This document shows, piece by piece, positions 6,027 through 53,541 of a stretch of 64,000 bases of DNA (positions within the stretch are counted from its first letter, which is position 1; each line of letters begins with the position of its first letter). Source of the stretch: an uncultured Nitrospiraceae bacterium (GTDB lineage: Bacteria; Nitrospirota; Thermodesulfovibrionia; Thermodesulfovibrionales; SM23-35). Location of the stretch: positions 239,428 to 303,427 of the forward strand of contig CAVSHB010000002.1 in the NCBI GenBank assembly GCA_963727775.1. Direction: 5' to 3'. The notes below the pieces were generated by a model. That model saw nothing but the letters and a program-made list of their open reading frames with translations, was not told the origin of the DNA and ran no database searches. A program made the position numbers and the translations under genes.

Positions 6027-6440
6027 ATGAAGAAAAAGCCTGTTTTCGGGTTTCTTTTTTTTGTTTTGATGGTTTCGGCGGCACTATGGCCCATAAGGTC
6101 TGCGCGAGCCGAGGAGGTAGTGCGGGCAAAGCTTACCAACGGCCTCAGGGTAGTGATCGTCCGGAATCCGCTTGTGCCGGTAGCCACGACAGTGGTCAAT
6201 TACCTTGTCGGTTCCGATGAGGCTCCCGCTGGATTCCCTGGTATGGCTCACGCACAGGAACATATGATGTTCCGTGGAACCCCCGGGCTCACAGCCGACC
6301 AGCTTGCGCGCATTACGGCGGAGATGGGGGGCAATTTTGACGCTGACACCCAGCAGAATGTAACACAGTATTTTTTTACCGTGCCGGTCGAAGACCTGGA
6401 TGTGGCCTTGCACATAGAAGCAATACGGATGAAAGGCGTC
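6027..6440 (+). pseudogene. M16 (pitrilysin/insulinase) family zinc peptidase, N-terminal fragment truncated by IS insertion
   Basis: Signal peptide; HxxEH zinc motif (HAQEHMMFRGT). The reading frame runs directly into the IS terminal repeat at 6441. Confidence 0.7.
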
Positions 6441-8151: not shown

Positions 8152-8424
8152 GTGGAATCGTATATTACTTAGAACCCCCCTGGCTATGAGGTCACTGATA
8201 GACCAAAATTCTTTACTGGCATTGCGAGCCTTACACTGCTGTGCCTGACGAACACCATTCTTTTGAATGATCCAAAGATCGACTCCTTGCTCGTCATCAC
8301 CGACGCCCTCAATGGTGACAGATTTAATTTTCTCTTCAAGAAGGGAAAGAAGTTGAGTGGCAACCCATCGGCCTTCATACCGGTTGCCAAGTTTATCCGC
8401 CAATCCTCCTGATTCAAATGGCAT
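8152..8424 (-). pseudogene. N-terminal fragment of an unknown gene whose frame runs into the right end of IS copy 1
   Basis: ORF MPFESGGLADKLGNRYEGRWVATQLL... reads through into IS sequence (..HLGVCRTFNISEKFTS). Unrelated to the M16 peptidase on the other flank. Confidence 0.4.
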
Positions 8425-11296: not shown

Positions 11297-11911
11297 TTGA
11301 AAGTTGCTATTTACGGGAGAGTCAGCACTATAGACAAGGGGCAGGACCCTGAGATGCAGATGAAACCCCTTCGGGAGTATCGTTTGGCACGAGGATGGGA
11401 ACTTGAGGGGGAGTATGTTGATTATATTACCGGCGTCAAGGATCGCAGGCCCAAGCTCGACTTGCTCATGGACGCTGCAAGGAAAAGACAGATCGATGGC
11501 GTCCTTGTGTGGAAACTGGATCGCTTCGGGAGATCTCTGAAGCATCTTATTGCCACCGTTGATGAGCTTAATAGCCTGGGAGTCGGGTTTGTGTCCTACC
11601 AGGAGAACATTGACCTTACGACTCCTGTGGGCAAGCTTATGTTTCATATTATTGGTGCGATGGCCGAGTTTGAACGCGAATTAATCAGGGAAAGAGTTCG
11701 TGCAGGCATTGCAAACGCAAGAACAAAAGGAAAGCAGATCGGCAGGAGGGTACTTTCTCCGATAAACCGGCGTAAAATCATCGAGGCCTATGAGCAGAAT
11801 CCCGGTCTATCAATTCGGCAGATTGCAAAGGAGACAAAGCAAAAGCCCAGCACTGTTCACAAAACCCTATCACTTTTGAGAGCAGGAAAGATAGACAGAG
11901 AAGGGTTTTAG
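11297..11911 (+). CDS. serine recombinase (resolvase/invertase family) with C-terminal HTH
   Basis: MKVAIYGRVST...GVLVWKLDRFGRS catalytic-domain motifs; C-terminal HTH. Confidence 0.8.
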   Translation: MKVAIYGRVSTIDKGQDPEMQMKPLREYRLARGWELEGEYVDYITGVKDRRPKLDLLMDAARKRQIDGVLVWKLDRFGRSLKHLIATVDELNSLGVGFVSYQENIDLTTPVGKLMFHIIGAMAEFERELIRERVRAGIANARTKGKQIGRRVLSPINRRKIIEAYEQNPGLSIRQIAKETKQKPSTVHKTLSLLRAGKIDREGF

Positions 11912-13137: not shown

Positions 13138-13681
13138 AGCAGATAAGGAAGATTTAATCCTTTATTGAGATTTGATGAGTACCGTTCCTACTCAACACTT
13201 TCGGAAAATGAGAGCGGATGTTCATTTCTCCCTCTAATTACGTCTCACACGTCATAGTTCCGTCTGAGTTGAAGAGTTCATCCCGAAATGATTGATCCGC
13301 CGCTGACGCATACATCTCGTATTAAACAGCCTTGAGATTTTCCGAAGGGGATACTTTCAAAGCGAAATAGATGACTGTTTCTTGGATTGCCAGTATTTGT
13401 TTGTATTGAAAACAAGCGGGCTGCTGCATAAATCTATCGACAATATATTTTTCAATGCTACATCTGAAGGGTATCGAATATCGACTGCACTTGAAATTAT
13501 TGAATCCGAGGGATTGAATTAATCGGAGAACTCCTTCATCAAGTGTGCAAATTAAAAAACTGTCATGGACAACATATTTCTTTTGCAAATATATATTTTG
13601 AAGATAGGATACTTTTGATGATTTCTGATTGAACTGATCGTCGATTCCTGATTAGGCATATCTTCAATAAGGGTGGGGCTC

Positions 13682-16645
13682 TTATTCCTTCTTAAAAAAC
13701 ATTTCAATTTCCACTGCTGGCAGAGGTTTGCTCAAGTAGAAACCCTGTCCCATATCGCACCTTAAAAGGCGCAGAAAATTCCATTGCTCCTCTGTCTCTA
13801 TCCCCTCTGCAATTGTTTTTAAATTCAGGGTATGTGCCATGTTGATAATAGCCATGACGATTGAGGCAGAATCAGGATCTCGTACCACTTCCCTTATAAA
13901 GGATATATCAATCTTCAGGTTATCAACCGGAAACCTCTTCAGATATGCCAAAGATGAATACCCTGTCCCAAAATCATCAATAGATACTGAACACCCTATC
14001 TCTTTCATTGCCGTAAGCACCGATCTGGTAAATTCTATGTCCTGCATAAATGCGCTTTCTGTTATCTCCAGGGTAAGGTGTGATGGATAAAACCCAAATT
14101 CTCCCATTATCCTTTTTACCATTTCTGCCAAATTCTTTTGCCTAAACTGAACTAATGACATATTCACAGAGACGGGAACTACCGGATATCCATTGTTCTG
14201 CCATTCCTTGACCTGTCTCAGGGCTTCCCTTAATATCCATTCCCCCACCTCTATAATCATTCCCGTGTCCTCAAGCACAGGAATAAACTTCCCCGGGGGC
14301 ACTAATCCCTTGTCCTTGCTTTGCCATCTGATAAGGGCCTCCATGCCGACCATCTTTTTTGTATTGATATCCCAGTAAGGCTGATAGTGGAGGATAAATT
14401 CCTTTTTAGTAATAGCCTTGTGAAGACCTTTTTCCATCAAAATGAGTTCCGATGCTTTAATATTTAAGTCTTCAGTGAAAAACTGGTAGGGTTTCATCCT
14501 CTCTTTCTTAGCTGTCCCAAGCGCCAATCCTGCAGCCTTCAGCAGTTCAGAAGCGCTCTTTCCGTCATTAGGATATAGTGAGACGCCGGTGCTGAAGGTC
14601 AGTACCAACTCATCTCTATCGACCTTTAAAGGGTAAGATATATCCTTTATGATCTTCTCTAAAACCATAACAATATCATCGGCATGGGCAACATCGAGAA
14701 GCGCTATCCCGAATTCATCGTTTGAAAGACGGGCGATGGTATCTCCTTTTCGGACAGAGGTTGAAAGTCTTCCTGCGATCTCCTTTAAAACTCTGTCCCC
14801 GATCTCAGATCCATAGGTATCGTTTATGGACTTAAACCTGTCGATATTAGTGATTAAAACTGCGACAATCCTTGAAGTATATTCAGCTCGTGCTATGGCC
14901 TGGTTGACCCTGTCAAAAAAGAGGTTTCTGTTTGGAAGGTCTGTCAAAGAATCATAATACGCAAGATACTGGAGTTTTTCTGCCATTTTCTTGCGTTCGG
15001 TAATGTCTCTGAAATTTACAACAGCTCCAATAATTTTGCCTTCATCCATAATAGGATTACTTGAGTATGCAACAGAAAAGTTTGTGCCATCCTTTCTCCA
15101 GAAAACTTCGTCCCTTACGTTATGATTAACAGAGCCGTCTTTCAAAGTCGCATAGATAGGACACTTGTCTTCAGGATATGTGCTTCCATCGTCTATCGAA
15201 TGATGCCAGATTGCGTGACTGTGTTTCCCTATCAACTCTTTAGATTCATATCCGAGCATGCCAGCAGCTGATGGATTTATAAATGTGTGGTTTCCCTGAA
15301 AATCCAACCCAATGATTCCTTCTCCTGTAGAGTTCAGGATCAATTCGTTGTGATGACGGAGATTTTGCATCATTTCCTCTGCTTGCTTTCGCTCGGTGAT
15401 GTCCCTGCCAATACCACAAATTGCTACAGGTTTGCCTTCGAGGTTTTTGAGCAACGTACCGGAGAACTCATATGGAATGTTTCTCCCGTCCTTGGTCAAA
15501 ACTCTTGCCTCAAGACCGGCATAACCATTCCTAACCGCCATCTCAATAGCCTCCAATACTCGCCGGACATCTTCCTTTAAAAAGAAATCTACTGGCTGCA
15601 TAGAAGATATATCGGCATCACTGTATCCTAAAACTGTATTTAATTTTTTATTCCACCTCAGAAACTTACCGTTAAAATCAAAAATGAAGAAGACGTCGGA
15701 TAGAGAATTCAATGCGTTTTCTGTAAAGGTTTTCTCACTTCGAAGGTCCTCTTCTGCCCGCTTTCGCTCAGTGATGTCGCGGAAGTACCAGACTCTGCCA
15801 TAGTACCTCCCGTCAACCCCAAACATCGGAGCAGAGTAACGGTCAAAGATCCTACCGTCACGTAGAGAAATCTCATCCCGGCTGGTCTCCTGCCGGTGTT
15901 CATATAGGTAACGGACTTTCTGCAAAAAATTGTCGGGATCAACAATATTATCCAACACCGACTGCAATGTACGCTCGTCGGATCTCGTTTCCAGTATCTC
16001 AGAAGGAATGTTCCACAGCTCACGGAATCGCCGATTGAACGAAAGTATCCTGCCGCTTTCATCAACCACGAGGATTCCATCAATAGAAGCTTCCTGCTGT
16101 GTAGACAGGATAACGTTTCGAAATGTTAACTCCTCCTCAGCCCTTCGGATCGCATCACGTTCTTTTTCAAGTTCCCGCACCTTTTTGTCCAGTTTCCGGG
16201 CGTAGACTTCCATCTGCATCCTGTCAAGTTCCGTCATCTCCGCAGGAAGTTGGTCCGGCACGGGAAGATGCCCGGCCCGCTGCTCTTTAATTACTTTTCT
16301 GATGGCACGGAAAAATTTCTCCGGTTCCATCGGCTTTATAAGAAAAAGCGACGCCCCGATCGCGATCGCCAGCTTTTCATCTTTCTGATCAATATAGGTG
16401 GCAGTATAAAAAACAAAGGGGATGGTTCGAAACCGCTCATCTGTCTTTACCCTGCGGCACAGCTCAAAACCATCCATTTTCGGCATCATGATGTCCGAAA
16501 TAATCAGATCAGGAGGCGATAGAGAAGCTTTTTCCAGCGCCTGTAGACCATTGGCAGCGCTCTCAACGGTATATCCCTGGCTCAGGAGTGCGCGCTCAAG
16601 AAAAACCCTTGAATTGGCATCGTCCTCTACGATCAATACCTTCAT
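13682..16645 (-). CDS. response regulator receiver - PAS x3-4 - GGDEF (degenerate SNDEF) - EAL phosphodiesterase
   Basis: Receiver domain (DDANSR...DLIISDIMMPKMDG). Multiple PAS blocks. GGDEF site reads RLSNDEFGI. EAL motif GMEALIRWQ. Confidence 0.85.
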   Translation of the reverse strand: MKVLIVEDDANSRVFLERALLSQGYTVESAANGLQALEKASLSPPDLIISDIMMPKMDGFELCRRVKTDERFRTIPFVFYTATYIDQKDEKLAIAIGASLFLIKPMEPEKFFRAIRKVIKEQRAGHLPVPDQLPAEMTELDRMQMEVYARKLDKKVRELEKERDAIRRAEEELTFRNVILSTQQEASIDGILVVDESGRILSFNRRFRELWNIPSEILETRSDERTLQSVLDNIVDPDNFLQKVRYLYEHRQETSRDEISLRDGRIFDRYSAPMFGVDGRYYGRVWYFRDITERKRAEEDLRSEKTFTENALNSLSDVFFIFDFNGKFLRWNKKLNTVLGYSDADISSMQPVDFFLKEDVRRVLEAIEMAVRNGYAGLEARVLTKDGRNIPYEFSGTLLKNLEGKPVAICGIGRDITERKQAEEMMQNLRHHNELILNSTGEGIIGLDFQGNHTFINPSAAGMLGYESKELIGKHSHAIWHHSIDDGSTYPEDKCPIYATLKDGSVNHNVRDEVFWRKDGTNFSVAYSSNPIMDEGKIIGAVVNFRDITERKKMAEKLQYLAYYDSLTDLPNRNLFFDRVNQAIARAEYTSRIVAVLITNIDRFKSINDTYGSEIGDRVLKEIAGRLSTSVRKGDTIARLSNDEFGIALLDVAHADDIVMVLEKIIKDISYPLKVDRDELVLTFSTGVSLYPNDGKSASELLKAAGLALGTAKKERMKPYQFFTEDLNIKASELILMEKGLHKAITKKEFILHYQPYWDINTKKMVGMEALIRWQSKDKGLVPPGKFIPVLEDTGMIIEVGEWILREALRQVKEWQNNGYPVVPVSVNMSLVQFRQKNLAEMVKRIMGEFGFYPSHLTLEITESAFMQDIEFTRSVLTAMKEIGCSVSIDDFGTGYSSLAYLKRFPVDNLKIDISFIREVVRDPDSASIVMAIINMAHTLNLKTIAEGIETEEQWNFLRLLRCDMGQGFYLSKPLPAVEIEMFFKKE

Positions 16646-17013
16646 GCTGTTTCACCGGTCAGTTGCCTGATCTGGGATATGACACGTTCCGGGTCGATGG
16701 GTTTCTCGATATAACCGTCACACCCTGCGGACAAAAGCTTTTCCCGGTCACCTGACATCGCATATGAGGTCATGGCGATTACCGGAATGCTGTTGCCTAT
16801 TTCTGAACTCCGGATTTTACGCAGCACCTCCGTGCCTTCAATATCCGGCAGTTGGATATCGAGGATGATGAAATCAGGCCTTTTTTGCAGGGCCATTTCG
16901 AATCCCTCCATACCGGTTACGGCCTGAAGTGTCCGGTAACCAAACTTCTCCAGAAATCTGGTAATCAATACCATATTGTCAGGGTTATCTTCAATGATCA
17001 GAGCTGTTTTCAT
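16642..17013 (-). CDS. single-domain CheY-like response regulator
   Basis: LIIEDNPDN...DFIILDIQLPDIEG...KLLSAGCDGYIEKP. Stop/start overlap with both neighbours. Confidence 0.85.
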   Translation of the reverse strand: MKTALIIEDNPDNMVLITRFLEKFGYRTLQAVTGMEGFEMALQKRPDFIILDIQLPDIEGTEVLRKIRSSEIGNSIPVIAMTSYAMSGDREKLLSAGCDGYIEKPIDPERVISQIRQLTGETA

Positions 17014-19181
17014 CGGATATCTCCTATTTTATTTATGTCAGAAGTCTGACTTAAGTCCCTGGGAACTCTTAAAGTAAACGCACTCCCATGCCCTTCCATG
17101 CTCTGAACCGAGACACTCCCTTGAAGAATATCAGTAGCAAGTTTTTTGGTAAGATATAGCCCCAGACCTGTACCACCGGCTTTCACGCGTAAATGTGTAT
17201 CCAGCCGCTCAAATGCCTCGAAAAGCTTCGGCATATCTTTTTCTGCAATTCCTATTCCCGTGTCAATAACAGAAATTTCCACATCAGCGTTCAGTTCACG
17301 AGCTGTAATAGTAATTCCGCCTTTTTCCGTAAACTTTACTCCGTTACTCAAAAAGTTAATGAGGCACTGCAGCAGCCTCTTCCTGTCTGTATTCAGCTTC
17401 ACGTCCGCAGGTATGTCGACTGCCATAGTCAACCGTTTTTCCTTTAACTGTGGCTCTATGGTAGATAGTGCCTCATCAATAATATTTTTGAGTGAAACTT
17501 CCTCCGGAAATAAATCGAGTCTCCCGGCTTCAATTTTTGAAATGTCAATAACATCGGTGATTAAGGCAAGAAGATGTTTGGCTGACTGGTAGACCCTTGC
17601 AAGATTGTCCTTCTGCTCGTCGTTAAGTTCTCCGGATAATCCCTGCAGGGTCATGCCGGTGAACCCTATGATGGAGTTCAACGGTGTGCGAAGCTCATGG
17701 GACATTGAGGCAATGAACATTGATTTGAGCCGGTCCAGTTCCTTTAACCTTTCATTAGCCGTTTCGAGTTGCTTCTTGGCCTCATTCACATCCTCCAGCA
17801 GTAACTGGAGGGCCTTCTGCGATCGCTCCAGTTCAATTGTCTTTGCCTCAAGGTCAGCCGTGCGTTCATTCACAAGCTCTTCAAGATGAAGCCGGTACTT
17901 TTCCAACTCCGCCTCAGTCTGTTTCCGTTCTGTGATATCGGAACCAACGCTGAGGATTTCCAGTACCTTTCCCTCATTATCCTTTACTACTTTGTTAGTC
18001 CAGGAAATCCAGACTCTATCACCGTTACGTCGCATGTTTTCATTGATGTTTTTCTCAAAGTCTTCAGGGTGGGCACAAATTTCATCCATGAGAGGGCTCA
18101 GATCCCTGCCCGTGGTTTCTGATTCAGGAACAATAGTGCCGACTACATGACGGCCGAGAATTTCAGCTTCCGAGTAGCCGAAAAATTTCTGTCCAAATTC
18201 ATTCAAGAAGGTGACTTCTCCCTCCCGGTTCCAACGAAGAATTATACTGTTGGCGTTCTGAACAAGCTCCCGATACTTCCGTTCGCTTTCCTGAAGCTTT
18301 TTCCCTGCCTGCTTACGGTCGGTGATATCTATAATGGAGGCAATACTCTTTTTTGTGCCCGGAATCATGGCAATGGTCAGGGATATTTGCTTGATATTGC
18401 CATACTTATCGATCAGCCTTAACTCATAATTCCCAGGAGCAGCTTCGGGATCGTTTCTCCTCAAGCTGTGAAAGTATTGCATCTTCCCGACATCCTCTTC
18501 CATAACGAATTCTGTCCACTTCATTTTTCCTTCAATTTCTTTTCGTGAATAACCGGATATCTTCTCTGCTTCTGCATTTGCCAGTGATATGGCGGTGTCC
18601 TCTTCGATTATGATCATGGCTGTCCCGGTATTTTCAAACACAGCCCTGTACTTTATTTCTGATTCGAGCAGATTGTTCTCAACCTTTTTGTGCTTTGTGA
18701 TATCTTCATACATCACAACAATGCCCTTTTCCAACATCCCTTTACCGATCACTGATGCGCTTATCCTGCACAGTATTTCCTCACCATCCTTGCGCCTGCA
18801 GGGAAAATCCTCAGTATGGGTTCTCTGCTTCTCAAGCAATGGATAGAAGTGCCTGCCGATCTCCTCATAGTCTTTCTCGCTCCGATATAATAGCTGTGTT
18901 TTTTGCCCGATTATTTCATCGGGTTTCCAGCCGAACACTCTTTCAACCGCTTCATTTGCAAAGAATATTGTACGATCTTTTAAACCGACAATTGCGTGAG
19001 GAATCGCACTGAGTATCGAGGACTGTAATTCTTGCAGTTGTTTGAGAGATGTCTTGAAAGAACGCGTATCTGTTGATGATTTGATAGGAACACTTTCATT
19101 GATAGAAAAAAGTTTTGTTTTGGGATACTCTTCTATAATTGACTTCTGACTTTTATTTGCTGTCTTTTGTCTTTTAATCAT
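17010..19181 (-). CDS. PAS-containing sensor histidine kinase
   Basis: Several PAS domains. HisKA H-box ASMSHELRTPLNSIIGF. HATPase_c G-boxes. Confidence 0.85.
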   Translation of the reverse strand: MIKRQKTANKSQKSIIEEYPKTKLFSINESVPIKSSTDTRSFKTSLKQLQELQSSILSAIPHAIVGLKDRTIFFANEAVERVFGWKPDEIIGQKTQLLYRSEKDYEEIGRHFYPLLEKQRTHTEDFPCRRKDGEEILCRISASVIGKGMLEKGIVVMYEDITKHKKVENNLLESEIKYRAVFENTGTAMIIIEEDTAISLANAEAEKISGYSRKEIEGKMKWTEFVMEEDVGKMQYFHSLRRNDPEAAPGNYELRLIDKYGNIKQISLTIAMIPGTKKSIASIIDITDRKQAGKKLQESERKYRELVQNANSIILRWNREGEVTFLNEFGQKFFGYSEAEILGRHVVGTIVPESETTGRDLSPLMDEICAHPEDFEKNINENMRRNGDRVWISWTNKVVKDNEGKVLEILSVGSDITERKQTEAELEKYRLHLEELVNERTADLEAKTIELERSQKALQLLLEDVNEAKKQLETANERLKELDRLKSMFIASMSHELRTPLNSIIGFTGMTLQGLSGELNDEQKDNLARVYQSAKHLLALITDVIDISKIEAGRLDLFPEEVSLKNIIDEALSTIEPQLKEKRLTMAVDIPADVKLNTDRKRLLQCLINFLSNGVKFTEKGGITITARELNADVEISVIDTGIGIAEKDMPKLFEAFERLDTHLRVKAGGTGLGLYLTKKLATDILQGSVSVQSMEGHGSAFTLRVPRDLSQTSDINKIGDIR

Positions 19182-19772
19182 TTAGAATGAACTGCTTTTT
19201 GACTTAATTTGGTCTTTCATCTAACGTTCCTGAATAAATTCACATGAGGTTGTTGAAAATAAACTTTCTACAAGGCGAGATGTATGAAAACTTTTGTGCT
19301 GAAGCCATTATTGCCTCCATTTACAGCTGCAGAAGCATAGACCTGATTTTGATTATACCAGCTATAAAAAATATTGCAACATCATGCATGTAATGTTCTC
19401 AGAATGGGATACAGCGCAAGTACATTATACAATCAGATTATCCCCTTTATGGCGTATTATCGGACACCTCCCATTGTTGCCTTTTCGTGCTTTACCCATT
19501 CCCAAATTATTTTTTTAAAGTTCTGCAATAACGATCCATATTGATTCCAGGGTCTGCACAATATTCCGGGATGTTTAAAAATGAGAATTGTTGTTTGAAA
19601 TGCTCGTCATTTGCCTTACCCTGAAACGCGACGTTGATTCGGAAATCTTTATATATCTATGACGACCAAATGTACACAGTACTATGTGCTATACGTAACA
19701 AAATTGATTGATTCTTAGGACCACCAAGGGTCATGATCAAGCCTGCTTTTTCAAAAAGGAAGAGGAGGATCA

Positions 19773-20455
19773 ATGACCCAGGCAAGACCGATTGTCAGCA
19801 GACCACACAGCAGTGAAATCGAAGTAATAAGTTATCAGGATGTAGCAAGCTCTTATATTGATCGTATTCTTCAGAAGATTTCTGCAATGGAGTTTCCCGG
19901 CAAAGAGGCCTGCGAGAGCTACATGCGCCACAAGTGGAGAATGAATCACAAGCCAAGCACTCTTGAGAGCAGTCTCCACGCTGTGAGTTCCTTTCTCACT
20001 TTCTATGCCAGCATAGGGAAGAGCCAACTTCAAGATGTAGTCAGTGACGATCTTGAGAGATTTGTCGAACACGAACAGGATCGAGGGCTGAAGGTCACGA
20101 CGGTAAGGACAAGGCTTCATTGCCTCTTTGCTTTCCTGCGGTTTCTGATCGATCAGGATATCGTTGGCGAACGTATACTCAAACGTAAGATCAAACTCAA
20201 AGTGCCTGATTTCCTGCCAAGAGCTATTGCACCGGGCGATGTAAGAAAGTTTCTTGGTGCTATTAAAGAGATACGTGACCGTGCCCTGATACTCGTGCTC
20301 TTACGAACAGGCATGAGAATCGGCGAAGTTCTTCGCCTGAATGTAAGAGACTTGGATGTTAGGGAAAGAAAGATACACATTTATGAGGGGGAAAAGAACT
20401 GCCTTGGACGAGTGGTCTATCTCAGCGACGATGCTTTAATGGCCTTAAGGTGTGG
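19773..20455 (+). pseudogene. tyrosine recombinase (XerC/XerD-like integrase) int1, N-terminal part, interrupted by IS21-like element
   Basis: Catalytic box I RTGMRIGE...VVYLSDDALMALR. Frame is cut at the IS21 left TIR (20451). Confidence 0.65.
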
Positions 20456-20615
20456 GCGGCGGAGTAAAAGAACTGGTAACGGAGGAACCGAAAGCGTCGC
20501 TGATGGAGCCAGCCTGAAGATTGCAGTTAGAATTAATGAGTAGACTGAAGAACCCACCTTAGAGACCCACCTTTACATACAATGATACCTACAACAAAGT
20601 AGTTGGAGGTAATCA

Positions 20616-20984
20616 TTGGTAAAGAGATGCATGCACTGTGGGCGGTATTTCACGCCTGATAAACGGATCGGAGCGAGGCAGAAAGTCTGTCAGCGAAAGC
20701 AATGCAAGCGGGCAAGAAAGAACCAGTCCCAGCAGCGGTGGCGCCAAAATAATCCTGAGTATTTCAATAACCTGTATCTCGACTATGTCAAACCCTGGCG
20801 GCAGCGACGCAAAGAGCTACATGTGTCTCCCTTGCCGCGACAAATGATAAAAGACGAGATACCCCCTTCAAAGCCTTTACAGGAACTGGTTTTGCTGATA
20901 CCGGGTGGCATTAAAGGGATGATAAAAGACGAGATACGACTGCGAAGGCTTGATAGTCATACGTTTGCGGCCTATGGGCCATGA
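20616..20984 (+). CDS. questionable ORF inside IS21 left end (CxxC..CxxxxC zinc-ribbon-like, spans terminal repeats)
   Basis: ORF overlaps the three 19-bp direct repeats, so it is likely non-coding. The N-terminus looks protein-like. Confidence 0.2.
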   Translation: MVKRCMHCGRYFTPDKRIGARQKVCQRKQCKRARKNQSQQRWRQNNPEYFNNLYLDYVKPWRQRRKELHVSPLPRQMIKDEIPPSKPLQELVLLIPGGIKGMIKDEIRLRRLDSHTFAAYGP

Positions 20985-21059
20985 TAAAAGACGAAATGGA
21001 CTCGTAATCGGCGCTGAGGTAAACTGGATCATCACATCAGGGAAGGAGATGATCCATCA

Positions 21060-22472
21060 ATGCAAGAATCGCTTCAAAACCGGGCGCGGCACCTATATCA
21101 GGTTGAAGGGTTGAGCCTGAATCAGGTAGCGACGAAGCTGGGCATATCGAGAAAAAAGGTTACCCGCCTCATTCGGCAAGACGACACCAGGAGAAGATCC
21201 TCCGGTAACATCCTGGCGCCCTATGCGCGGTTAATTCAGCAGTGGTACACGGAATATCCGTTTCTGCAGGCCATACAGGTAATGGAGCGGCTGAAGGGCT
21301 ACGGGTATGAGGGAGGGTATACGGCGGTGAAGGATTACACGCTCCCATTAAGAAAGAAGCGGAAGGGCAACTCCTTCCATGCGCTGGAGTTTCTTCCAGG
21401 GGAAGAATCGCAGGTTGATTGGATGCAGAGGAGCATGCCTTTCGGGGTAGTCTACGGGTTCGGCTACATCCTGTCCTATTCGCGGTACCTTTACGCTCAC
21501 TTCTATCTGAGGAGCTCTATGGAGTTTTTCCTGGACGGCCATATTGAGGCCTTCAAAGAAATAGGAGGTGTCGCCAACAGACATGCTTATGACAATCTCA
21601 AGTCCGTAGTCATAAAGAGAAAACCGGAGATAACTTACAATGCTCGTTTTTTGGACTTTGCACGGCACTATAATTTCTCTATCCGTGCCTGCAATCCTGG
21701 CAAGCCTAATGAGAAAGGCAGGGTTGAGCGGGTCATCAGAGACATTGAAAGCTTCCTCGTCATCAATACCTTCGCCGATATCGACGATCTTAATAAAAGA
21801 TTCGGCCTCTGGCGCATACAGAGAAATGCCAGGATTCACCGATCCACGGGAATGCCTCCTGTTGAGGCGTTAAAGCAGGAGAGACTCATAGCTCTCCCCC
21901 AAATCCATTACCTGCCTTACAGACAGGAGCCGGCATCCATCAACAAGACGTGCTTTGTGGAGTTCGACACCAACCGCTACTCAGTGCCATCCCAGTACGG
22001 AGATATGCCCTGCGACATCTTTGGGTATCCTCAGCACATAGAAATAGCGGTGCATGGCAGAAAGATAGCGACGCACAAACGGGTATTCGACAGAAAACAA
22101 AAGATAGAACATCCTTCTCACCGCGAGAAACTTCTCAATATCACTCCCCACTATAAATACAAAAGGATGCACCAGCTTCTGAAGTCCATGGACAAAAACA
22201 TCGAACACTTCCTCAACCGCGCTGAACAAGAGGGACAGGATCCTCTTGAGGTTGCTTACGAACTGTTCAAACTTCTTAAAGGCATAGCCAGGGAGACACT
22301 GATATCGGCGGTCAAGGCCGCCATAAGCATCGATACCTATAGAGTGACCTATATCCAGGGGCTTCTGGGTCCGGCGGGCAATCAGGACAATCCCGTGCAT
22401 CCCCAGAACCCGGGGCTGTTACATATCTCATATGAAGGGAGGCAACTGAGCGATTATGATGAACTTATCTGA
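21060..22472 (+). CDS. istA: IS21-family transposase IstA
   Basis: N-terminal HTH; DDE integrase-like core; 470 aa. Confidence 0.9.
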   Translation: MQESLQNRARHLYQVEGLSLNQVATKLGISRKKVTRLIRQDDTRRRSSGNILAPYARLIQQWYTEYPFLQAIQVMERLKGYGYEGGYTAVKDYTLPLRKKRKGNSFHALEFLPGEESQVDWMQRSMPFGVVYGFGYILSYSRYLYAHFYLRSSMEFFLDGHIEAFKEIGGVANRHAYDNLKSVVIKRKPEITYNARFLDFARHYNFSIRACNPGKPNEKGRVERVIRDIESFLVINTFADIDDLNKRFGLWRIQRNARIHRSTGMPPVEALKQERLIALPQIHYLPYRQEPASINKTCFVEFDTNRYSVPSQYGDMPCDIFGYPQHIEIAVHGRKIATHKRVFDRKQKIEHPSHREKLLNITPHYKYKRMHQLLKSMDKNIEHFLNRAEQEGQDPLEVAYELFKLLKGIARETLISAVKAAISIDTYRVTYIQGLLGPAGNQDNPVHPQNPGLLHISYEGRQLSDYDELI

Positions 22473-23133
22473 GCTGTGGAGGCACTTCAGGCTCCTTGCG
22501 GATCTTGAAGCTCTTTCAAAAGAACAAAAGGAGTTTATGTTGAAGTTCCTCACCGAGGAGTATCATCGAAAGGAGTTAAAAAGGATCCAGTACCTCATGA
22601 ACATGTCCGGCATCAAGAGAACAAAGATCCTCGATGACTTCGACTGGAAATATAATCCAAAGATACCAAGGGACAAGATCATAGAATACATGAACACCCA
22701 GTGGCTTAAGAAACCCAGCAACCTTGTGCTCATAGGCCCGGCCGGTGTCGGTAAAACCCATGTCGCAACCGCACTGTGCCATGATGCCCTTACCAAAGGC
22801 TGTCAGACGGTCTTTCTTACCTTGTTTGACCTCACCGCCAAAATGGCGAAGGCCAAGAGCATCTACAGCTTCATCGAATACCACGCGCGGGCAGCCGTTT
22901 GGTGTCTGGATGAGATCGGCTATGTGATCCCGAGCAAAGAACAGGCAGACTGCATCTTCCAGATAATCTCAAAAAGGGCGGAAGTGGGCACGACCATCGT
23001 CACCACCAACCTTGTACCGTCAAACTGGGGGAAGGTGTTTGATACCGTGACTGCATCGGCGATTCTTGATCGGCTCAGCATGAACGGAAAGTTCATCACC
23101 TTCGAAGGAAGGTCCTATAGAAATAGGCAGTAA
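22456..23133 (+). CDS. istB: IS21-family ATP-binding helper IstB
   Basis: Walker A GPAGVGKTH; Walker B CLDEIGY. Overlaps the istA stop. Confidence 0.9.
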   Translation: MMNLSELWRHFRLLADLEALSKEQKEFMLKFLTEEYHRKELKRIQYLMNMSGIKRTKILDDFDWKYNPKIPRDKIIEYMNTQWLKKPSNLVLIGPAGVGKTHVATALCHDALTKGCQTVFLTLFDLTAKMAKAKSIYSFIEYHARAAVWCLDEIGYVIPSKEQADCIFQIISKRAEVGTTIVTTNLVPSNWGKVFDTVTASAILDRLSMNGKFITFEGRSYRNRQ

Positions 23134-23289
23134 GCTGGGTAGAATAATAACGAAAGTTCCGAATCAGGGTTACAACTGATTAGAGATAACTCGCCTCGGC
23201 GCAGGGCGTTCCACGCTGGATTGCGCCCTGACCAGCTACAGCAGGCATCCGCCGCCGCCATATTCGGTTCCTTTCGAGCGGCGCCCACA

Positions 23290-23630
23290 TAAGGCTCTGG
23301 CTTAGAAAAAGAAAACATCAAAGCGAGTATCTATTCCCCGGTCTACAGCATAGACATTTAGGGTACACTCAAGCCCGCAATATTTTTGTGAAGTATATAT
23401 GTGCTGCAGGGCTGCAGCATAAAGGTTACACGATCCACAGCATGAGACATACCTTTGCGAGTGAACTGCTGAACGCGGGCATGCGCCTGGAATGTCTCCA
23501 GCTCTTGTTGGGCCATCGCGATATAGAGATGACCCGGCGGTATGCTCGCCTTACCGATAAAAGCCGGGAGGAGGAGTACTTCCGTGCCATGGCGATTATC
23601 GAGCAAGGAGGCATTGATGGAGCCTACTGA
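23290..23630 (+). pseudogene. tyrosine recombinase int1, C-terminal part (HxxR and catalytic Tyr region)
   Basis: ...GYTIHSMRHTFASELL...LLGHRDIEMTRRYARL. After removing the IS21 and one TAAGG copy, it is in frame with 19773-20450 (ALMALR|LWLRKRKHQSEYLFPGLQHRHLGYTQARNIF...). Confidence 0.65.
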
Positions 23631-24549
23631 GCTGATTGCGAGATACCGGAGATTTCTGAAGCGGAGGAACTATTCGGTGCACACCGTGAAAAACTACGTC
23701 AATATCCTTGGTCATTTCAGTGCCTGGCTGCGGATTCCTATAGAGCGGGCAACGTCTAAAGAAACGGACGCCTATATGGACCATCTCTTGAGAAGGAGGA
23801 AGAAACCAAAGACCATCAATTGTCATTTCGGCTGCATCCATACCTTTTATGATTATCTTATAGAAGAGGAGAGAATGCCTATTGCCAACCCCGTCAAAAA
23901 GAAATACAGGCTTCGGTTACCGCGGCCGCTGCCCAAACATCTCAGAGACCAGCAGGTTGCAGCACTCTTCAACGAAATCAGCGATACCAGAGATCGGGCC
24001 ATGTTCATGCTAATGCTCAGATGCGGTCTGCGGGTTGAAGAGGTTGCGCGACTGACAGCAGATGCGATAGAGTATCGCAGCAGACAGCTTTATGTCTTCA
24101 ATGGGAAAGGCAGCAAGGACAGAGTTGTCTATCTCAGCGATGACGCTCTGAGTACCTTAAAAACTTATATGGATAAACGTAGATGGTCGAAGGAGAAAAG
24201 GTTGTTCTTAGTGCAAAAGGGGCCGCTTAGGGGGAAGCCGATATCAGTTCGCGGCATTCAAAAGAGGATCGAACACTATGCACAGAGAGCGGGGATAGCG
24301 GTATCCTGTCATCACTTGAGGCACACTATGGCAACACAGTTATTGAATGCAGATGCCGATCTCGTTACCATACAGGATTTACTGGGCCACAGCCGGATCA
24401 CTACAACGCAGTGCTATTGTAGAGTCTCCAATCTCAAAGTGCAGCGGGACTACTATAAAGCCATTAACGTTGTACTGCAAAGGACACAGCCAATAAGAGA
24501 TGATAGCTTTGAGTGGGACAAAAAAGGGATAATAGACAACAGCATATAA
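23617..24549 (+). CDS. tyrosine recombinase int2 (XerC/XerD-like), intact; start overlaps the int1 stop by 14 nt
   Basis: N-terminal SAM-like domain. R...K(GSKDR)...HHLRH...LLGHSRITTTQCYCRV catalytic residues. RBS aaggagg before ATG 23617. Confidence 0.8.
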   Translation: MEPTELIARYRRFLKRRNYSVHTVKNYVNILGHFSAWLRIPIERATSKETDAYMDHLLRRRKKPKTINCHFGCIHTFYDYLIEEERMPIANPVKKKYRLRLPRPLPKHLRDQQVAALFNEISDTRDRAMFMLMLRCGLRVEEVARLTADAIEYRSRQLYVFNGKGSKDRVVYLSDDALSTLKTYMDKRRWSKEKRLFLVQKGPLRGKPISVRGIQKRIEHYAQRAGIAVSCHHLRHTMATQLLNADADLVTIQDLLGHSRITTTQCYCRVSNLKVQRDYYKAINVVLQRTQPIRDDSFEWDKKGIIDNSI

Positions 24550-24614
24550 CCAACTGAAACTAAAAGAAAAAGTAGGTTTTGTTACGTATAGCAGGAAGTA
24601 ATTGAGAGAGATTA

Positions 24615-25402: not shown

Positions 25403-27036
25403 CCTAAAAAAAGCAGTTAGAGATCATGCCACACCAGTTTGAGGGAGCAATTTCCCTGAATTTATGTTCAAAGGGCCGATGATTTTTCTAAAAGCATGCA
25501 TTGCTACAATCCTCATCCGCTCAGCGATATTCAACTGCTCCGCAGTGGTCCTAATATCCCCGAGGAACAGTGATAGTCGTAACAATGCTCCCCGCACCTT
25601 TTCAGCCTTTGCATGAGGACTGGTAATAGTCAGAAAAGTCTGTCCCCCATGTTTTGTCTGTTTCGCAACTGCGTGTAACAGCAACGGTCTGCTCGTTATT
25701 GCCTCATGATGTTTATTTGGATTGGCCAGGCGCACAAACAGCGACCACCAGTTATATACAAGAGCTACCATGCGACTAATCATGCGGCATCGCTTCAAAT
25801 CCTTTGTCGTATATCCGCCCCAGCCCCACTGATTCTTTAACTCGTCAAAGATATTTTCACTGTCTGCACGATCCCGGTAATGCTGTGCAATACTTGATAC
25901 CTCATCAGAAAGAGAAGTCACCAGCACCGTGTACTCATACTTAGCCACTCCCCCTTGTGTCTCGATGAAACTCATCTCCATTTGATCTTTCCCTTTTTTC
26001 TGCAAAAGAATATCCCCAGGTATAGGTCGGCGCAGCACGATCACCCGGCGACTACGGCTCCACCCAAATAACTTCAGCTCTGACTCCATTCCATAGTATC
26101 CGGCACCGGCTTTTACCCATTCTTCCATCTCAAACATTCTCTCGATCAATCTTTTTACATTCTTCGTAATCCTCAGCTTTGTGACATAATGTATACTACG
26201 TTTTTCTGCCTCTGATAACACTCCCTCTACTCCAAACGCTATATCTCCACGGATGAAGGCCGGCCGATTATCCCGGGGAATACTCTCTACCAATTCCCAT
26301 AATCCAGCCGTGCTGTGACTCGATGCGGTCTCATTGCCCGCCTTCACTTCTACCTTTAACGCTAATCGTGTGTTTGCCATAAAATAACTGTGGTAACTGT
26401 GTGAGGGCCGCCCAGGTTTCTTAGGATTATATCCCACAACTGCCCCCTCTTGTTTGCCATACAGACACTTTACCGTCGTGTCCGTATCAAGTATCCAGGA
26501 GGGGCCTGATACTGCCGATAATACAGGCATCGTGCAGCGTGCAAGCTCTGATTCAAGCCATTGTATCCCAGTCCCTTCTTCTATCTGCAATAAGGCCCGA
26601 CGCGCCGCATCTTCACTGATTATCTTATCCATCCCCAATAACTCGGGATTCACTCCATCACTTCGTATCGCTGCGATATGTGCATATCGCTTATGTCCCG
26701 CAAGTATCGAAAGCATGAGAGTGCCTAACACGTTTCTCTTCTTCGGCGCATTCGGGCTGCTATAGGAGAGGGGACACTCTTTTACAAAGGAATCAAACAA
26801 CCCGCTGACTTTCAGAAATTCTATGAAAAATGGCAACTGCCCCAATGGGGTAACAGCTGCATCAGGGTCCCATTCTACGTGTATCTTCCCCGCATATGTA
26901 TCAATTCCTACTGAGTTGCTCCTTGCTATCGCACGCCGTTTTGCCTCACCCATTAGGTGAACCCTCCTGCCACTCTTTTTCCGTTTATTATTGCATGCTT
27001 CGCCCCTTATGTGTATCCCGTACCGCTTTTTTTAGG
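25403..27036 (-). mobile_element. IS1380-family insertion sequence (copy C), ~1634 bp
   Basis: IRs CCTAAAAAAAGCAGT (25403) and ACCGCTTTTTTTAGG (ends 27036) bracket the transposase. Confidence 0.65.
25424..26953 (-). CDS. IS1380/IS4-type DDE transposase
   Basis: 509 aa; GYNPKKPGRPSHSYH...YRDRADSENIFDELKNQWGWGGY motifs. Confidence 0.8.
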   Translation of the reverse strand: MGEAKRRAIARSNSVGIDTYAGKIHVEWDPDAAVTPLGQLPFFIEFLKVSGLFDSFVKECPLSYSSPNAPKKRNVLGTLMLSILAGHKRYAHIAAIRSDGVNPELLGMDKIISEDAARRALLQIEEGTGIQWLESELARCTMPVLSAVSGPSWILDTDTTVKCLYGKQEGAVVGYNPKKPGRPSHSYHSYFMANTRLALKVEVKAGNETASSHSTAGLWELVESIPRDNRPAFIRGDIAFGVEGVLSEAEKRSIHYVTKLRITKNVKRLIERMFEMEEWVKAGAGYYGMESELKLFGWSRSRRVIVLRRPIPGDILLQKKGKDQMEMSFIETQGGVAKYEYTVLVTSLSDEVSSIAQHYRDRADSENIFDELKNQWGWGGYTTKDLKRCRMISRMVALVYNWWSLFVRLANPNKHHEAITSRPLLLHAVAKQTKHGGQTFLTITSPHAKAEKVRGALLRLSLFLGDIRTTAEQLNIAERMRIVAMHAFRKIIGPLNINSGKLLPQTGVA

Positions 27037-33406: not shown

Positions 33407-33971
33407 CTTGCTATATTGTAGTTAATGATGAGATCGATATATCTTCCAGGTAAGAATTGTTTATCCGGCAAAGGAAAGAAGGAGGAGATATTTATGAAAG
33501 GGTTACGGACGAAAAGAGTAAACATGATAAAGGAAGGGGCATTGATAGTAGCGATAGACATTGGTATGGCAAGTAACCATGGGTGCTGTGTGGCAGCAGA
33601 CGGGAGGAGCACCAAGACATTCAAGTTTGATAATACAAGAGAAGGACTTGATAGATTGTGGAACATGGTACTTGCGAGCAAAACCAGATTTCAATGCAAT
33701 GAGGTCATTATAGGATATGAGTCAACCGGACCTTATGGAGAGCCGTTGGTTCACTATCTCAAGCAGAAACCAGCAACGATCGTACAAGTAAACCCACTGC
33801 ACACGAAGAGGATGAGAGAGATCAATGACAACTCTCCATTAAAGACTGATCGTAAGGATCCCCGGGTAATCGCGGATGTCATACGGATAGGGCACGCCTT
33901 AAGCGTCGTGGTCCCAGAAGGTGCTGCCGCCTATTTGAGAAGAATAAATAATGCACGGGAGAGACATATTA

Positions 33972-35592
33972 ACCCGAAAAATGCGTTTGCTATAGGCATA
34001 CCTATAGAGTCAAGCCTATCAAGGCATTGGCTGATTTGTCGATATAAAAGCTAATACTGATGCTGTTTCTTGTTCCACCTCCTGAAAATTATGTTCTTTT
34101 TATCTAAATGCAGTGCAATTACCAAAACTGGGGGGAAAGTATTGTCCCACGCGGTTAAAGAGGTAGCGCAGTTTTGATCGTACTTTCTGCGTAAAGACAG
34201 AAATCCGCAATACAGGTTTCCTTCCATCCCATCCTAATTGGGCTGGAAGGACAAGATACTTGTACCGTAAGGTTTTCAAACGTTCTGTCTTTTCTTTTTG
34301 ACCGAGTATCTGATGCCTGAACAGGACAAACAGATTGTAGATGAATACCCGAATAAGCATAGCCGCCTCCGTTGAGTAGAAATACTTCATCGAGAACCCG
34401 CCGAGTGCAAAATCCTCTTTCAGTTCCTTGATGGTATTCTCATCGTTCGCCCTATGCCTGCATTGCTTCCATACCTCATATGTAGAATCATGTGAATTGG
34501 TTATCCATACGCTATAACGATAATGCCCTGTATCAAACTCATCTCCGAAAAGAGACAACTCTTTTCCCATCGCGTGCGGTCTCTTCTTGACATCCTGGCG
34601 CACTGCAATAAACCTCCTGTCGATTATCCACTCTACATGCTGGAAGAAGAACTCAGTGATCCATATCCCTTCTTCTACCTGTGCCCAGTTTTGTTGTGCG
34701 TAGATTATCCTCTGCAGCGGACGATATAGGCGAGCAGCTATGATATATACTAATTCTCTCTTCTCAAGCAGTTCGATGAACTCCCTAAGATAAAATCCAC
34801 TGTCTGCAATAATGCCCTTGATATCGATATGACCGTTGATCCTCTGCCATGTGGATTCAAAAAATCCAATAATGTTGTTCCATGACATCACGTTGCCGGG
34901 GCGGTTCCAAAGATTTATCACATACTTGTTTCTGTTAAGAAATGCCAGAAGCGGGCTGTGGCTACCACGGCCCTTCTTCTTCGGGTTATATCCCCTCTTG
35001 ACTCCCTCCTGTTTTCCGTATCGCTCAAGGACTGTAGAATCGAACGTCAACCAGTCCTCTTTGAGCTCTTTCCAGGGGATCAATCTCTTCAAGTATCCCC
35101 ATAATCCCTCCGACATCTCTTCCACTTCCTTCAGTTTTCTGATCTTCCTGAAAAGCCTGCCCAATGTCGTCGAGGCGATAGGAAGCCTCTTCACTGCAAA
35201 AAGATCGGTGAAAATCTCCTGCCAACCAAGATAAAGTAGATGAGAAAACCTGCTGCCTCCCGCATAGATCAGAAGGATGTATGCCAATACCTTGCTGTAT
35301 ATCCCCATTCCATTGGGTGAACTCTCATGGATCGGAATCACCTCTTGCAAAATTCCTCTCAATTTGATCTTTTCAAAAAATGCAGCCAATAAACTGAATC
35401 CCCCATATGCCGTCATCTTCTTCTCCGTAAATCCAATCCTTACTTTATTTATTTCGATCTTTGTGCTACATTTTGACTGCATATTTCTATTCTCCTTTCG
35501 TTTAGAGTTGATGGTCGGGTAAACCTATTGATTCTAATACGAAAGGAGAATTTCTTCGGGGATATTATTTTAGGTCAACTGCACTTTTTGGG
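33972..35592 (-). mobile_element. IS1380-family insertion sequence (copy B), 1621 bp, TSD TTAA
   Basis: TTAA at 33968-33971 and 35593-35596. IRs CCCGAAAAATGCG / CACTTTTTGGG. Confidence 0.7.
34100..35482 (-). CDS. IS1380/IS4-type DDE transposase
   Basis: 460 aa; GYNPKKKGRGSHSP...HRANDENTIKELKEDF motifs. Confidence 0.8.
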   Translation of the reverse strand: MQSKCSTKIEINKVRIGFTEKKMTAYGGFSLLAAFFEKIKLRGILQEVIPIHESSPNGMGIYSKVLAYILLIYAGGSRFSHLLYLGWQEIFTDLFAVKRLPIASTTLGRLFRKIRKLKEVEEMSEGLWGYLKRLIPWKELKEDWLTFDSTVLERYGKQEGVKRGYNPKKKGRGSHSPLLAFLNRNKYVINLWNRPGNVMSWNNIIGFFESTWQRINGHIDIKGIIADSGFYLREFIELLEKRELVYIIAARLYRPLQRIIYAQQNWAQVEEGIWITEFFFQHVEWIIDRRFIAVRQDVKKRPHAMGKELSLFGDEFDTGHYRYSVWITNSHDSTYEVWKQCRHRANDENTIKELKEDFALGGFSMKYFYSTEAAMLIRVFIYNLFVLFRHQILGQKEKTERLKTLRYKYLVLPAQLGWDGRKPVLRISVFTQKVRSKLRYLFNRVGQYFPPSFGNCTAFR

Positions 35593-36383
35593 TTAAAGAG
35601 CGGACCGCTCTTCTCAACCAATTACGGCAGTTTGTGTTTCTCATATTCCCAGAATTTGGCCGAATAATAAAGACGATATTCTGCAAAACATCCTTACATA
35701 TACTCAAGAAATATACGACACCGGCAAAGGTATGCAGCGTAAATATAGAGAAACTTGGAGGGGAAATGAGGAGATGTAGCATGGGCAAATTCGGGGTAGA
35801 ACATGCTACGGCGCTGATCAATTATGCAAAGACCACCATCGGTATTCAAGAAGGGTTGGACGGATTAGTTATGGATATACAGCACGCCCTCGTCCAGCTG
35901 GAGATGGTCGATAGTCTCATAGCGGAACTGGAGCACGAGATGGAGACAACCCTACAGCGCATACCCTACAGTCGCAAACTCCTGTCAATCAAAGGGCTCG
36001 GGATAGTAACGGTAGCAGGGCTTATTGGTGAGATAGGCGACTTTACAAAGTTTAAAACGCAGTCTGAGATAGCGAAGCTTGCCGGTCTTGACCTGTACGA
36101 AGTAAGCTCCGGGAAAAGACAAGGACAGAGGAGGATATCAAAGAGGGGCAGAAGCCTGTTACGGAAAATACTGTATTATGCCGCCATGCAGACAATCAGA
36201 AAGAACGGCATTATGCATGAGTACTACCAAAGACTGATAGGCCGGGGCATGAAAAGTATCATGGCGCTCGTTGCAGTATCCAGGAAACTATTGAGGATCA
36301 TATTTGCAATTGTAAGGGATGACACTGAATTCATAATGAATCATGAAGCTCAGAGAAAGGAGGAGATGAGAAAGGCCGCTTAG

Positions 36384-38274: not shown

Positions 38275-38437
38275 GTATACGTTCCTCCTTTTTTATTTTA
38301 TCTATCTAACATTATGCCAACTTGGTATTTCTCGATTTCTTGAAATAATATAGCATAGTAAGGAATTACTTGAAAAAGAAAATTACAGAGAAATTTATAA
38401 TAAACATCAAGATGTCCGATGAGAGTTCCTATTAATT

Positions 38438-38502
38438 TGCAAGAGTACTTAACAGCCTCAGCTCGATACTCCCCGCGTTTAGTACAGGAAGGATGCTTGC
38501 CT
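38438..38502 (+). repeat. 65-bp module-spacer repeat, divergent copy R9
   Basis: GAGTACTTAACAGCC...GTTTAGTACAGGAAGGATGCTTGCC. Confidence 0.55.
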
Positions 38503-38656
38503 TTCAGAAATATTCGAAATACTTTCAAAAAGTCTACGTGATGGATAAATCTCCTCGGGTAGTAAGCTTCATCCCGAAGTTTTCATGGGAGGTGCTCACA
38601 AATTTCCCACACTTTCTTTTGATATTTCGCAGCTAATCTTCAACTAGTTGGAACAA

Positions 38657-42452: not shown

Positions 42453-42602
42453 GATTTTAAAAACATCATTTTTCGCGACCTTCACCCCATACTAAGCATA
42501 GCCTTTTTGTTCCCTGCAGTAGTCCATGATGAATAATAATGAATATCTTCGAAACAATCAGTGATTACTTGAGTCTTTGAAGATGCGTCTTTCATTGTTC
42601 TT

Positions 42603-44313: not shown

Positions 44314-44429
44314 TGTAAATGGCAGAGATTATTTATGGTCAATTTGTCCTATGTCAAGGGCTGACCCCATGGATGTCCTTTTTGCGCCTTTACTCTTTCA
44401 GCACCTCTACAAACGGGCGTCATTAATCA

Positions 44430-47225: not shown

Positions 47226-47391
47226 GTCAATCCTCCTATATTAATTCACCAAAACCTGTTTAAATTGTATCATGGGAAAAGAGCGAAATCATCTTTTGTG
47301 TTCAAGCACATCGAAAAGATATTAAGTGCCACCGGTCAAATTCAGCAGCCGCCAATAAGCGCGCTGACCTATTAACTGTACGGCGACAATG

Positions 47392-47447
47392 ATCCTTCCT
47401 GAACTAAACATTTCTGAAACCTGATATAGTGGTGCGTAGTTCAACTA
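47392..47447 (-). repeat. 65-bp module-spacer repeat, copy R15 (inverted orientation, right boundary of array)
   Basis: Reverse complement reads GTTGAACTACGCACCACTATATCAGGTTTCAGAAATGTTTAGTTCAGGAAGGATC. Confidence 0.75.
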
Positions 47448-53484: not shown

Positions 53485-53541
53485 CATTCAAATTCTATGA
53501 ATCACATGAGTCAGGCCACTTTATGCATACAATGGGGTTAT

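Follow-up and report, generated by a model that had tools for sequence, protein, structure and literature searches.

What do two tandem tyrosine recombinase genes do next to an array of dispersed repeats? The question is raised by a 64,000-nucleotide stretch of DNA from an uncultured Nitrospiraceae bacterium (assembly GCA_963727775.1, contig CAVSHB010000002.1, positions 239,428 to 303,427), hereafter the window. An initial annotation, made from the letters alone, described there two overlapping tyrosine recombinase genes, called int1 and int2 below, the first of them split by an IS21-family insertion sequence, and proposed the pair as the natural candidate for the recombinase of the array. Our analysis points with good confidence to another answer: window positions 19682-24598, minus the IS21-family element, are one copy of a compact, insertion-sequence-like mobile element of about 2.07 kb, whose sole genes are two overlapping Xer-like tyrosine recombinases and whose ends are 15-bp inverted repeats with 7-nt cores, and the pair is not the recombinase of the array. 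The window would thus hold an IS21-inactivated copy of a widespread and apparently undescribed two-recombinase mobile element.

Ends, copies and genes of the element

A repeat search detected an inverted repeat, 19680-19716 / 24564-24600, that brackets both recombinase genes. Terminal repeats, cores and genes are arranged as follows.

19682-19688, + strand: left 7-nt core, CTATGTG, abutting the left terminal repeat at the position it has in relatives
19689-19703, + strand: left terminal inverted repeat, CTATACGTAACAAAA, 15 bp, within inverted repeat I4
19773-20450, + strand: int1, N-terminal part, residues 1-226 of 337, holding R182 and K208
23295-23630, + strand: int1, C-terminal part, holding H274, R277, H300 and Y309
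23617-24549, + strand: int2, 310 residues, intact, its start overlapping the int1 stop by 14 nt
24577-24591, + strand: right terminal inverted repeat, TTTTGTTACGTATAG, 15 bp
24592-24598, + strand: right 7-nt core, CAGGAAG

The 14-nt arm pattern TTGTTACGTATAGC is matched exactly at just two places in the window, 19688-19701 and 24579-24592. With species-representative genomes (one genome per species) as the search set, 80 related loci were recovered from Thermodesulfovibrionales, Nitrospiraceae, Manganitrophaceae, many "delta proteobacteria", Syntrophales, Desulfobacterales and Aminicenantes. Their flanks are unrelated and many copies lie at contig ends. Int2 homologues are 310 residues long and 81-93% identical, and the one at 93% (P0001) sits on a 56-kb metagenome contig among sugar-nucleotide biosynthesis genes, a neighbourhood wholly unlike the window. 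In 76 of 81 loci the gene for Int1 immediately precedes that for Int2. The locus L001 is 89% identical to the window at the nucleotide level over 19686-24595, the insertion sequence being skipped, and this similarity ends abruptly at both inverted repeats; about 15 loci align over the full 2.07 kb with the same boundaries.

Multiple copies also occur within single genomes. The metagenome-assembled genome (MAG) CAVTNL01 carries seven loci belonging to two subfamilies, with similarity confined to about 2.06 kb; three of these loci (L007, L013 and L015) are mutually 99.5-99.95% identical and four others (L008-L011) 95-99.9% identical. For the window's own organism, an independent short-read contig (L092), 99.985% identical to 13197-19715, ends 30 nt within the left end of the element, and such a break inside an element is the usual signature of a repeat. 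Discrete ends, near-identical copies at unrelated loci and presence in several taxa are the marks of a transposable element, and the combination of sharp ends, unrelated loci, near-identical copies and a conserved pair indicates that the pair is a self-contained mobile two-gene unit.

The ends themselves are strongly conserved. All copies carry CTATACGTAAC(AAAA) at the left end and its reverse complement at the right end. The 7 nt lying outside both arms are identical in 28 of the 38 elements for which both ends were found, and some of these cores recur at independent insertions with unrelated flanks, sometimes in other MAGs (CACCTAC 13 times, CTTCCTG eight times, CATGTCG four times). Recurrence at independent sites points to a specific crossover core and argues against duplication by a random staggered cut, which would vary from site to site. 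The cores are asymmetric and directly repeated at the two ends; by the established mechanism of tyrosine recombinases, directly repeated cores lead to excision and integration, not to inversion.

Variation in length was also observed among the relatives. Longer subfamilies of 3.3-3.6 kb have about 1.2-1.5 kb of extra DNA and a third conserved open reading frame (ORF) of about 400 residues, which follows int2 and overlaps its stop codon (L027, 7050-8240; L037, 6885-8087). Its product is not a recombinase and gave only weak C-terminal matches to TPR models. Two copies of each length were found within the same MAG, which suggests that the ORF travels with the element. L013 has about 1.2 kb of additional DNA in its 3' end (6827-8049), so the window copy is not alone in bearing an insertion. 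Many Int2 homologues are encoded on contigs close to 2.07 kb in length, which were considered as possible circles; this argument was dropped, the two such contigs retrieved (L082 and L083) being ordinary linear fragments with flanking DNA.

The description of the two genes as tandem and overlapping was accurate. The int1 stop codon (23628-23630) falls within the 14-nt overlap, ATGGAGCCTACTGA, which 22 of the 25 orthologous pairs that could be extracted cleanly also show; the two genes are probably translationally coupled. An upstream ATG at 23542 was rejected as the int2 start in favour of the ATG at 23617. Both products match Phage_integrase (PF00589; E = 1.5e-35 for Int1 rebuilt as described below, 5.4e-39 for Int2), possess an N-terminal SAM-like core-binding domain (PF02899/PF13495) and align with each other, as the initial annotation had proposed, at 28% identity over 278 residues (E = 4e-37). 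Their catalytic residues, R182/K208/H274/R277/H300/Y309 in Int1 and R139/K164/H232/R235/H258/Y267 in Int2, form an R-K-H-R-H-Y set that is at least 97% conserved in both proteins across 26 pairs, and both clearly belong to the tyrosine recombinase superfamily.

Within this superfamily the pair had been called XerC/D-like or RIT-like. Xer is the closest family and structure, but both proteins score below the XerC and XerD cut-offs and their likeness to RIT recombinases is generic. The XerA model gives 200 bits for Int2 and 155 for Int1, under its curated cut-off, whereas the XerC model TIGR02224 gives 195 and 133 bits against an equivalog cut-off of 335, and the XerD model TIGR02225 gives 175 and 123 against 330. 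The nearest solved structures are XerA (4a8e) and XerD (1a0p). Judged by these profile scores, Int1 and Int2 are simple Xer-type recombinases. In a collection of annotated plasmids, the best Int2 match was about 33% identical, XerD of Acinetobacter included, and no named relative was found.

The interruption of int1 by an IS21-family element with a TAAGG duplication is likewise confirmed. It consists of the following parts.

20446-20450: TAAGG target-site duplication, left copy
20451-23289, + strand: IS21-family insertion sequence, 2,839 bp, with ends TGTGGGCG... / ...CGCCCACA
20616-20984, + strand: 122-residue Cys-rich basic ORF (CxxC...C...C), within the IS21-family element, upstream of istA
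21060-22472, + strand: istA, IS21 family transposase, 470 residues (NF033546, 217.7 bits against a cut-off of 160)
22456-23133, + strand: istB, IS21 helper ATPase, 225 residues (PF01695, E = 1.6e-44)
23290-23294: TAAGG target-site duplication, right copy

Across the left junction of the insertion the sequence is ...GCCTTAAGG|TGTGGGCGGCGGAG, and across its right junction ...CGAGCGGCGCCCACA|TAAGGCTCTGG. Members of the IS21 family have TGT...ACA terminal inverted repeats and a target duplication of 4-8 bp, as found here, and encode an IstA DDE transposase followed by an IstB AAA+ helper. IstA contains the rve and Mu-transpos_C_2 domains, and IstB scores 182 bits against NF038214, slightly under the model cut-off of 200. 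The Cys-rich ORF matches no Pfam or NCBIfam family and may be an accessory gene of this IS21 subgroup.

In-silico excision of the IS21-family element and one TAAGG copy joins 19773-20450 to 23295-23630 in a single frame of 337 residues, ...VVYLSDDALMALR|LWLRKRK...HSMRHTFA...LGH...RRYARL..., as had been predicted. Every catalytic residue is present in the rebuilt protein, the insertion point lying between the K208 region and the HxxR motif. Homologues without the interruption are colinear over the junction and have a single TAAGG or TAAAG there; the junction of one of them (L002) reads GCCTTAAGG|CTCTGGCTTAGAAAAAG. The suspicion that the insertion may have crippled the system holds for the window copy, in which int1 is broken and which is dead in cis. 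By itself, an IS21 insertion is routine.

A head-to-tail junction, stand-alone sites and a proposed mode of movement

Metagenome contigs were scanned for a right arm, 5 to 9 nt and a left arm in succession (right arm-N5-9-left arm), which identified seven contigs. In one of them (L090), a complete element is joined head to tail, past its right arm and 7 nt, to a second copy of its first 38 nt, arm included; the same 7 nt are also found at the chromosomal junction of the element. Another (L089) holds an element plus one extra outward-facing arm. The other five carry stand-alone palindromic sites without recombinase genes; L085 and L086 have the same sequence around theirs, which leaves four distinct sites. 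These sites, GTTACGTATAG-N5-7-CTATACGTAAC, were located at 1091-1119 of L085, 1462-1488 of L087, 101-129 of L088 and 4424-4451 of L091. They are identical to element arms and arranged as in a circle junction. Of the two that were examined for their neighbours, that of L091 lies between recQ-like and selA-like genes and that of L085 is also intergenic. Such stand-alone sites may serve as landing pads, be mere relics or be targets of recombinases acting in trans.

We propose that Int1 (337 residues) and Int2 (310 residues) would excise the element by conservative recombination between its directly repeated cores. Excision would yield a circle closed by a palindromic 15-7-15 junction site, lox- or dif-like (TTTTGTTACGTATAG-N7-CTATACGTAACAAAA), and this circle would re-integrate at chromosomal sites that share the 7-bp core and have, at most, weak similarity to the arms. 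As a speculative division of labour, one recombinase might act on the conserved arms of the element and the other on the poorly conserved arms of the target side, in which case each integrated junction would resemble a dif site bound by XerC and XerD. The circular intermediate, the requirement for both proteins and the division of labour are what we infer for this family.

Several points weigh against this interpretation. Most of the evidence was drawn from MAGs and metagenome contigs, in which repeats may have caused misassembly, and mobility is deduced from distribution and sequence. The L090 junction could be a circle, a tandem dimer or an assembly path. No empty target site was recovered: exact-protein look-ups with the flanking genes and with the window's own Int2 gave only L092, which is the same insertion, so that one copy of the 7-nt core may or may not come from the target. 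Strict core identity is not universal either, as cores match at 4-6 of 7 positions in the subfamily nearest the window and at only 2 of 7 in the window copy itself (CTATGTG versus CAGGAAG); given these mismatched cores, the window copy may be decayed or rearranged. Finally, both arms have the same sequence, so that nothing in the site accounts for a requirement for two different recombinases.

More tentatively, and with somewhat less than even confidence, we suggest that these elements constitute an undescribed minimal class of transposon, which could be termed a recombinase duo. Such a transposon would be 2 kb long and moved solely by a heteromeric Xer-like pair through a lox-like 15-7-15 circle junction, with the 7-bp core rather than the arms selecting the target, and with one recombinase acting on the element arms and the other on the arm-less target. 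The element is abundant in bacteria of anoxic sediment and soil (Nitrospirota, Desulfobacterota), and the stand-alone sites, which also occur in chromosomes, might serve as landing pads.

The family is moderately interesting in that its multi-recombinase transposon architecture is the simplest seen so far. A two-gene element so compact and abundant, with a simple palindromic site and a target that is apparently defined by the core, would be easier to reconstitute than any other of these systems. Work on it could throw light on why elements of this sort require more than a single recombinase, and it might be turned into a small tool for site-specific integration, with a 7-bp core as the determinant of the target. 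As to annotation, genes of this type are labelled "XerC/XerD" by the thousand in metagenomes; these probably belong to transposons rather than encoding chromosome-dimer resolvases.

The neighbouring repeat array and competing explanations

The array that was to be served by the pair begins about 0.7 kb from it. A repeat profile identified 15 copies of a dispersed repeat of 75-80 nt, 65-80% identical, between 25279 and 47457 of the window. Fourteen copies are on the + strand (25279-45473), including a weak one at 38433-38507 (E = 1.7e-4), and one is inverted (47383-47457). In gene orientation the repeat reads GCAAGC-TTCCTTCCTGAA-N~20-CCTGATATAATTGTG-N3-AGTACAA-N2-GGAAAT. In nearly every case it stands 13-217 nt upstream of a start codon, and the genes that it precedes are unrelated (protease, SPFH protein, hemerythrin-like, transglutaminase-like and others, among them what we take, reading the sequence by eye, to be a YegS-like lipid kinase). 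The inverted copy precedes a gene on the + strand, opposite to the other repeat-led genes. The repeat contains TGnTATAAT, the extended -10 promoter consensus. A sigma-70 scan for two hexamers called no promoter at the TATAAT of the repeats because there is no canonical -35, and the identity of 65-80% over about 80 nt exceeds what a regulon motif would need. Rfam gave no matches, and a search for tandem repeats found no tandem array. With moderate confidence, these features suggest that the repeat would be a shared promoter or regulatory module and not a recombination site.

Insertion of the element into an array repeat was also considered, the right core CAGGAAG being the reverse complement of the CTTCCTG block of the repeats; as the repeat profile detects no partial copy in either flank, this was treated as a coincidence.

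Could the pair nonetheless be the dedicated recombinase of this array, in an integron-like system with attC-like sites? Its distance from the first repeat would suit such a role, and the 15 repeats, which part unrelated and mostly single genes, do give the region the look of a cassette array. Yet when the repeat profile was run over 81 pair-carrying loci (777 kb, with up to about 6 kb of flank per side for most), no array was found, only one strong and four weak single matches. The initial annotation had itself held that finding the pair in related genomes without the array would speak against its proposal, and this is the situation at those loci. The pair has its own sites at its ends, precisely where similarity to other copies stops, and moves without the array; matches to the arms with up to three mismatches occur in the window at chance level and none lies within a repeat. 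The repeats do not behave as attC sites either: RNAalifold predicted 0 consensus pairs from 14 copies, and repeats lacking a consensus secondary structure are not attC-like. Their orientation tracks the downstream gene, the inverted copy at 47383-47457 included, and the near-invariant TGATATAAT suggests a promoter. Both proteins fall far short of integron integrases (TIGR02249, 114.5 bits for Int2 and 81.3 for Int1 against a cut-off of 265; NF011946, 62.7 and 57.2 against 435), matching these models in two stretches and leaving model positions of about 183-256 unaligned in the best stretches listed. We take the skipped stretch to be the insertion or additional domain specific to IntI, and neither protein belongs to that family. 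A role in the array is thus very improbable; with so many insertion sequences in the region, coincidence is the best explanation for the nearness of the pair to the array. The array loses its proposed recombinase and still needs an explanation of its own.

An equally improbable alternative is that the pair serves to integrate a larger genomic island, at whose edge it lies and whose cargo is the array region. In its favour, the pair does have housekeeping-type signalling genes on one side and a region of diverse genes with many insertion sequences on the other, and some relatives carry the extra DNA and the third, non-recombinase ORF mentioned above. Against an island stand the two terminal repeats, which enclose the two genes directly in a span of 2.07 kb, the flanks, neither of which is common to any other copy, and the absence of a second arm sequence elsewhere in the 64-kb window. 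Slightly less probable still is a phase-variation switch, in which the inverted repeats would be inversion sites and the recombinases would flip their own segment. Inverted repeats do flank the genes, and both proteins weakly match tyrosine invertase models (E of about 1e-11 to 1e-13), but asymmetric cores in direct orientation predict excision and integration, the unit recurs in several copies at many unrelated loci, and neither an outward promoter nor a switchable gene is conserved in the flanks. We give least credence to the view that the two genes are the host's chromosomal xerC and xerD, acting in chromosome-dimer resolution. The best matches are indeed to XerA, XerC and XerD, among models and in the PDB (4a8e, 1a0p) alike; the scores are nevertheless well under the XerC and XerD equivalog cut-offs, Int1 being lower than Int2, and near-identical copies occupy unrelated loci in the same genome, with up to seven copies in one MAG. 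Moreover, inverted repeats bound the pair, one of whose genes is disrupted here. Linkage of xerC and xerD is not the normal arrangement, and the arms do not resemble dif. The compact mobile element with its own ends remains the explanation that we favour.

The array region is a hotspot for insertion sequences. One insertion sequence, about 1.7 kb long, is present three times, at 6440-8152, 42601-44315 and 59328-61042, with no differences between the copies over the stretches compared; one copy lies inside the array. It has perfect terminal inverted repeats of 20-21 bp and encodes a 475-residue DDE transposase (DUF772, DDE_Tnp_1). Also within the array are a 509-residue DDE_Tnp_1_4 transposase (25403-27036) between 22-nt inverted repeats (25403-25424 / 27015-27036) and an apparent IS110-like gene (33425-36383) split by a 460-residue transposase-like gene (34100-35482). 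Elsewhere in the window, a 165-nt inverted repeat (53347-53511 / 56089-56253, 85% complementary) surrounds 2.6 kb with an HI0933-like flavoprotein gene and maf, with shorter inverted repeats nested at 53449-53652; the enclosed segment could be invertible or duplicated. A serine recombinase of 204 residues (11297-11911; Resolvase domain and helix-turn-helix) adjoins PIN-domain and HD-domain genes, with a 22-nt direct repeat nearby at 10700 and 11143, and is unrelated to the tyrosine recombinase pair.

Comparison with known systems

In the full-text literature we found no two-recombinase element of this size and kind, subscription journals being largely outside that scope and a prior description therefore possible; literature matches to the arm sequence were all unrelated mouse-genetics papers. 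A 2023 survey divided the prokaryotic transposons that rely on tyrosine recombinases into five groups, ICE/IMEs, SEs, GInts, RITs and Tn554 (PMC10214605). RIT elements encode three recombinases between 34-bp inverted repeats (PMC10214605; PMC3414803), RitA being described as having a doubled core-binding domain (PMC8138268). Like the element described here, they are compact, consist only of adjacent, overlapping tyrosine recombinase genes between terminal inverted repeats and occur in several copies per genome, with mobility deduced from distribution (PMC3414803; PMC10214605). Unlike them, the present elements encode two recombinases and not the ritA-ritB-ritC trio (two in 76 of 81 loci, the third ORF, where present, being no recombinase), and their terminal repeats are 15 bp long instead of 34 bp. 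Int1 and Int2 are shorter than the RitA proteins compared (410-412 residues), and their hosts are Nitrospirota and Desulfobacterota-type MAGs, whereas RIT elements are found mainly in alpha- and beta-proteobacteria. BLASTP comparison with the RIT trio of plasmid pHG1 (L084, 36086-39260) gave 25-32% identity with E values from 1e-7 to 4e-21. Since these matches are weaker than those to the Xer models, they reflect a generic, family-level likeness and not orthology.

With Tn554 and the SEs, the element shares two side-by-side tyrosine recombinases, a junction core of 6-7 bp able to travel with the element, and imperfect terminal inverted repeats (PMC10214605). Those elements combine an ordinary with a large recombinase (about 630 residues or more), encode a third protein, TnpC (in Tn554; PMC10214605) or Srap, carry cargo and use one or few target sites. 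Here, in contrast, both recombinases are small and Xer-like (337 and 310 residues), most copies lack a third gene or cargo, and insertion sites are many. Protein lengths and gene content thus set the element apart from Tn554 and the SEs.

Comparison with the XerC/XerD-dif system and IMEX elements rests on two paralogous, simple recombinases, here predicted to be catalytically competent, and on a short site with two arms around a centre. The difference is that the present recombinases are borne by the element, in multiple copies and from overlapping genes. The site also differs from dif, as its arms are identical inverted repeats and its centre is 7 nt long. The central region of dif has 6 nt. 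As in Cre/loxP, perfectly palindromic arms surround an asymmetric spacer that sets directionality, and the inner arm bases, CGTATA / TATACG, are presumably those of loxP. Cre, on the other hand, acts singly in plasmid maintenance and does not transpose, the spacer length differs and the proteins are not closely similar.

With integrons the sole likeness is a tyrosine recombinase that adjoins an array of gene units split by repeats; both recombinases lack the middle stretch of the integron integrase, the repeats do not fold, and the pair moves independently of any array. Taken together, the element shares the logic of RIT and Tn554 and fits neither definition.

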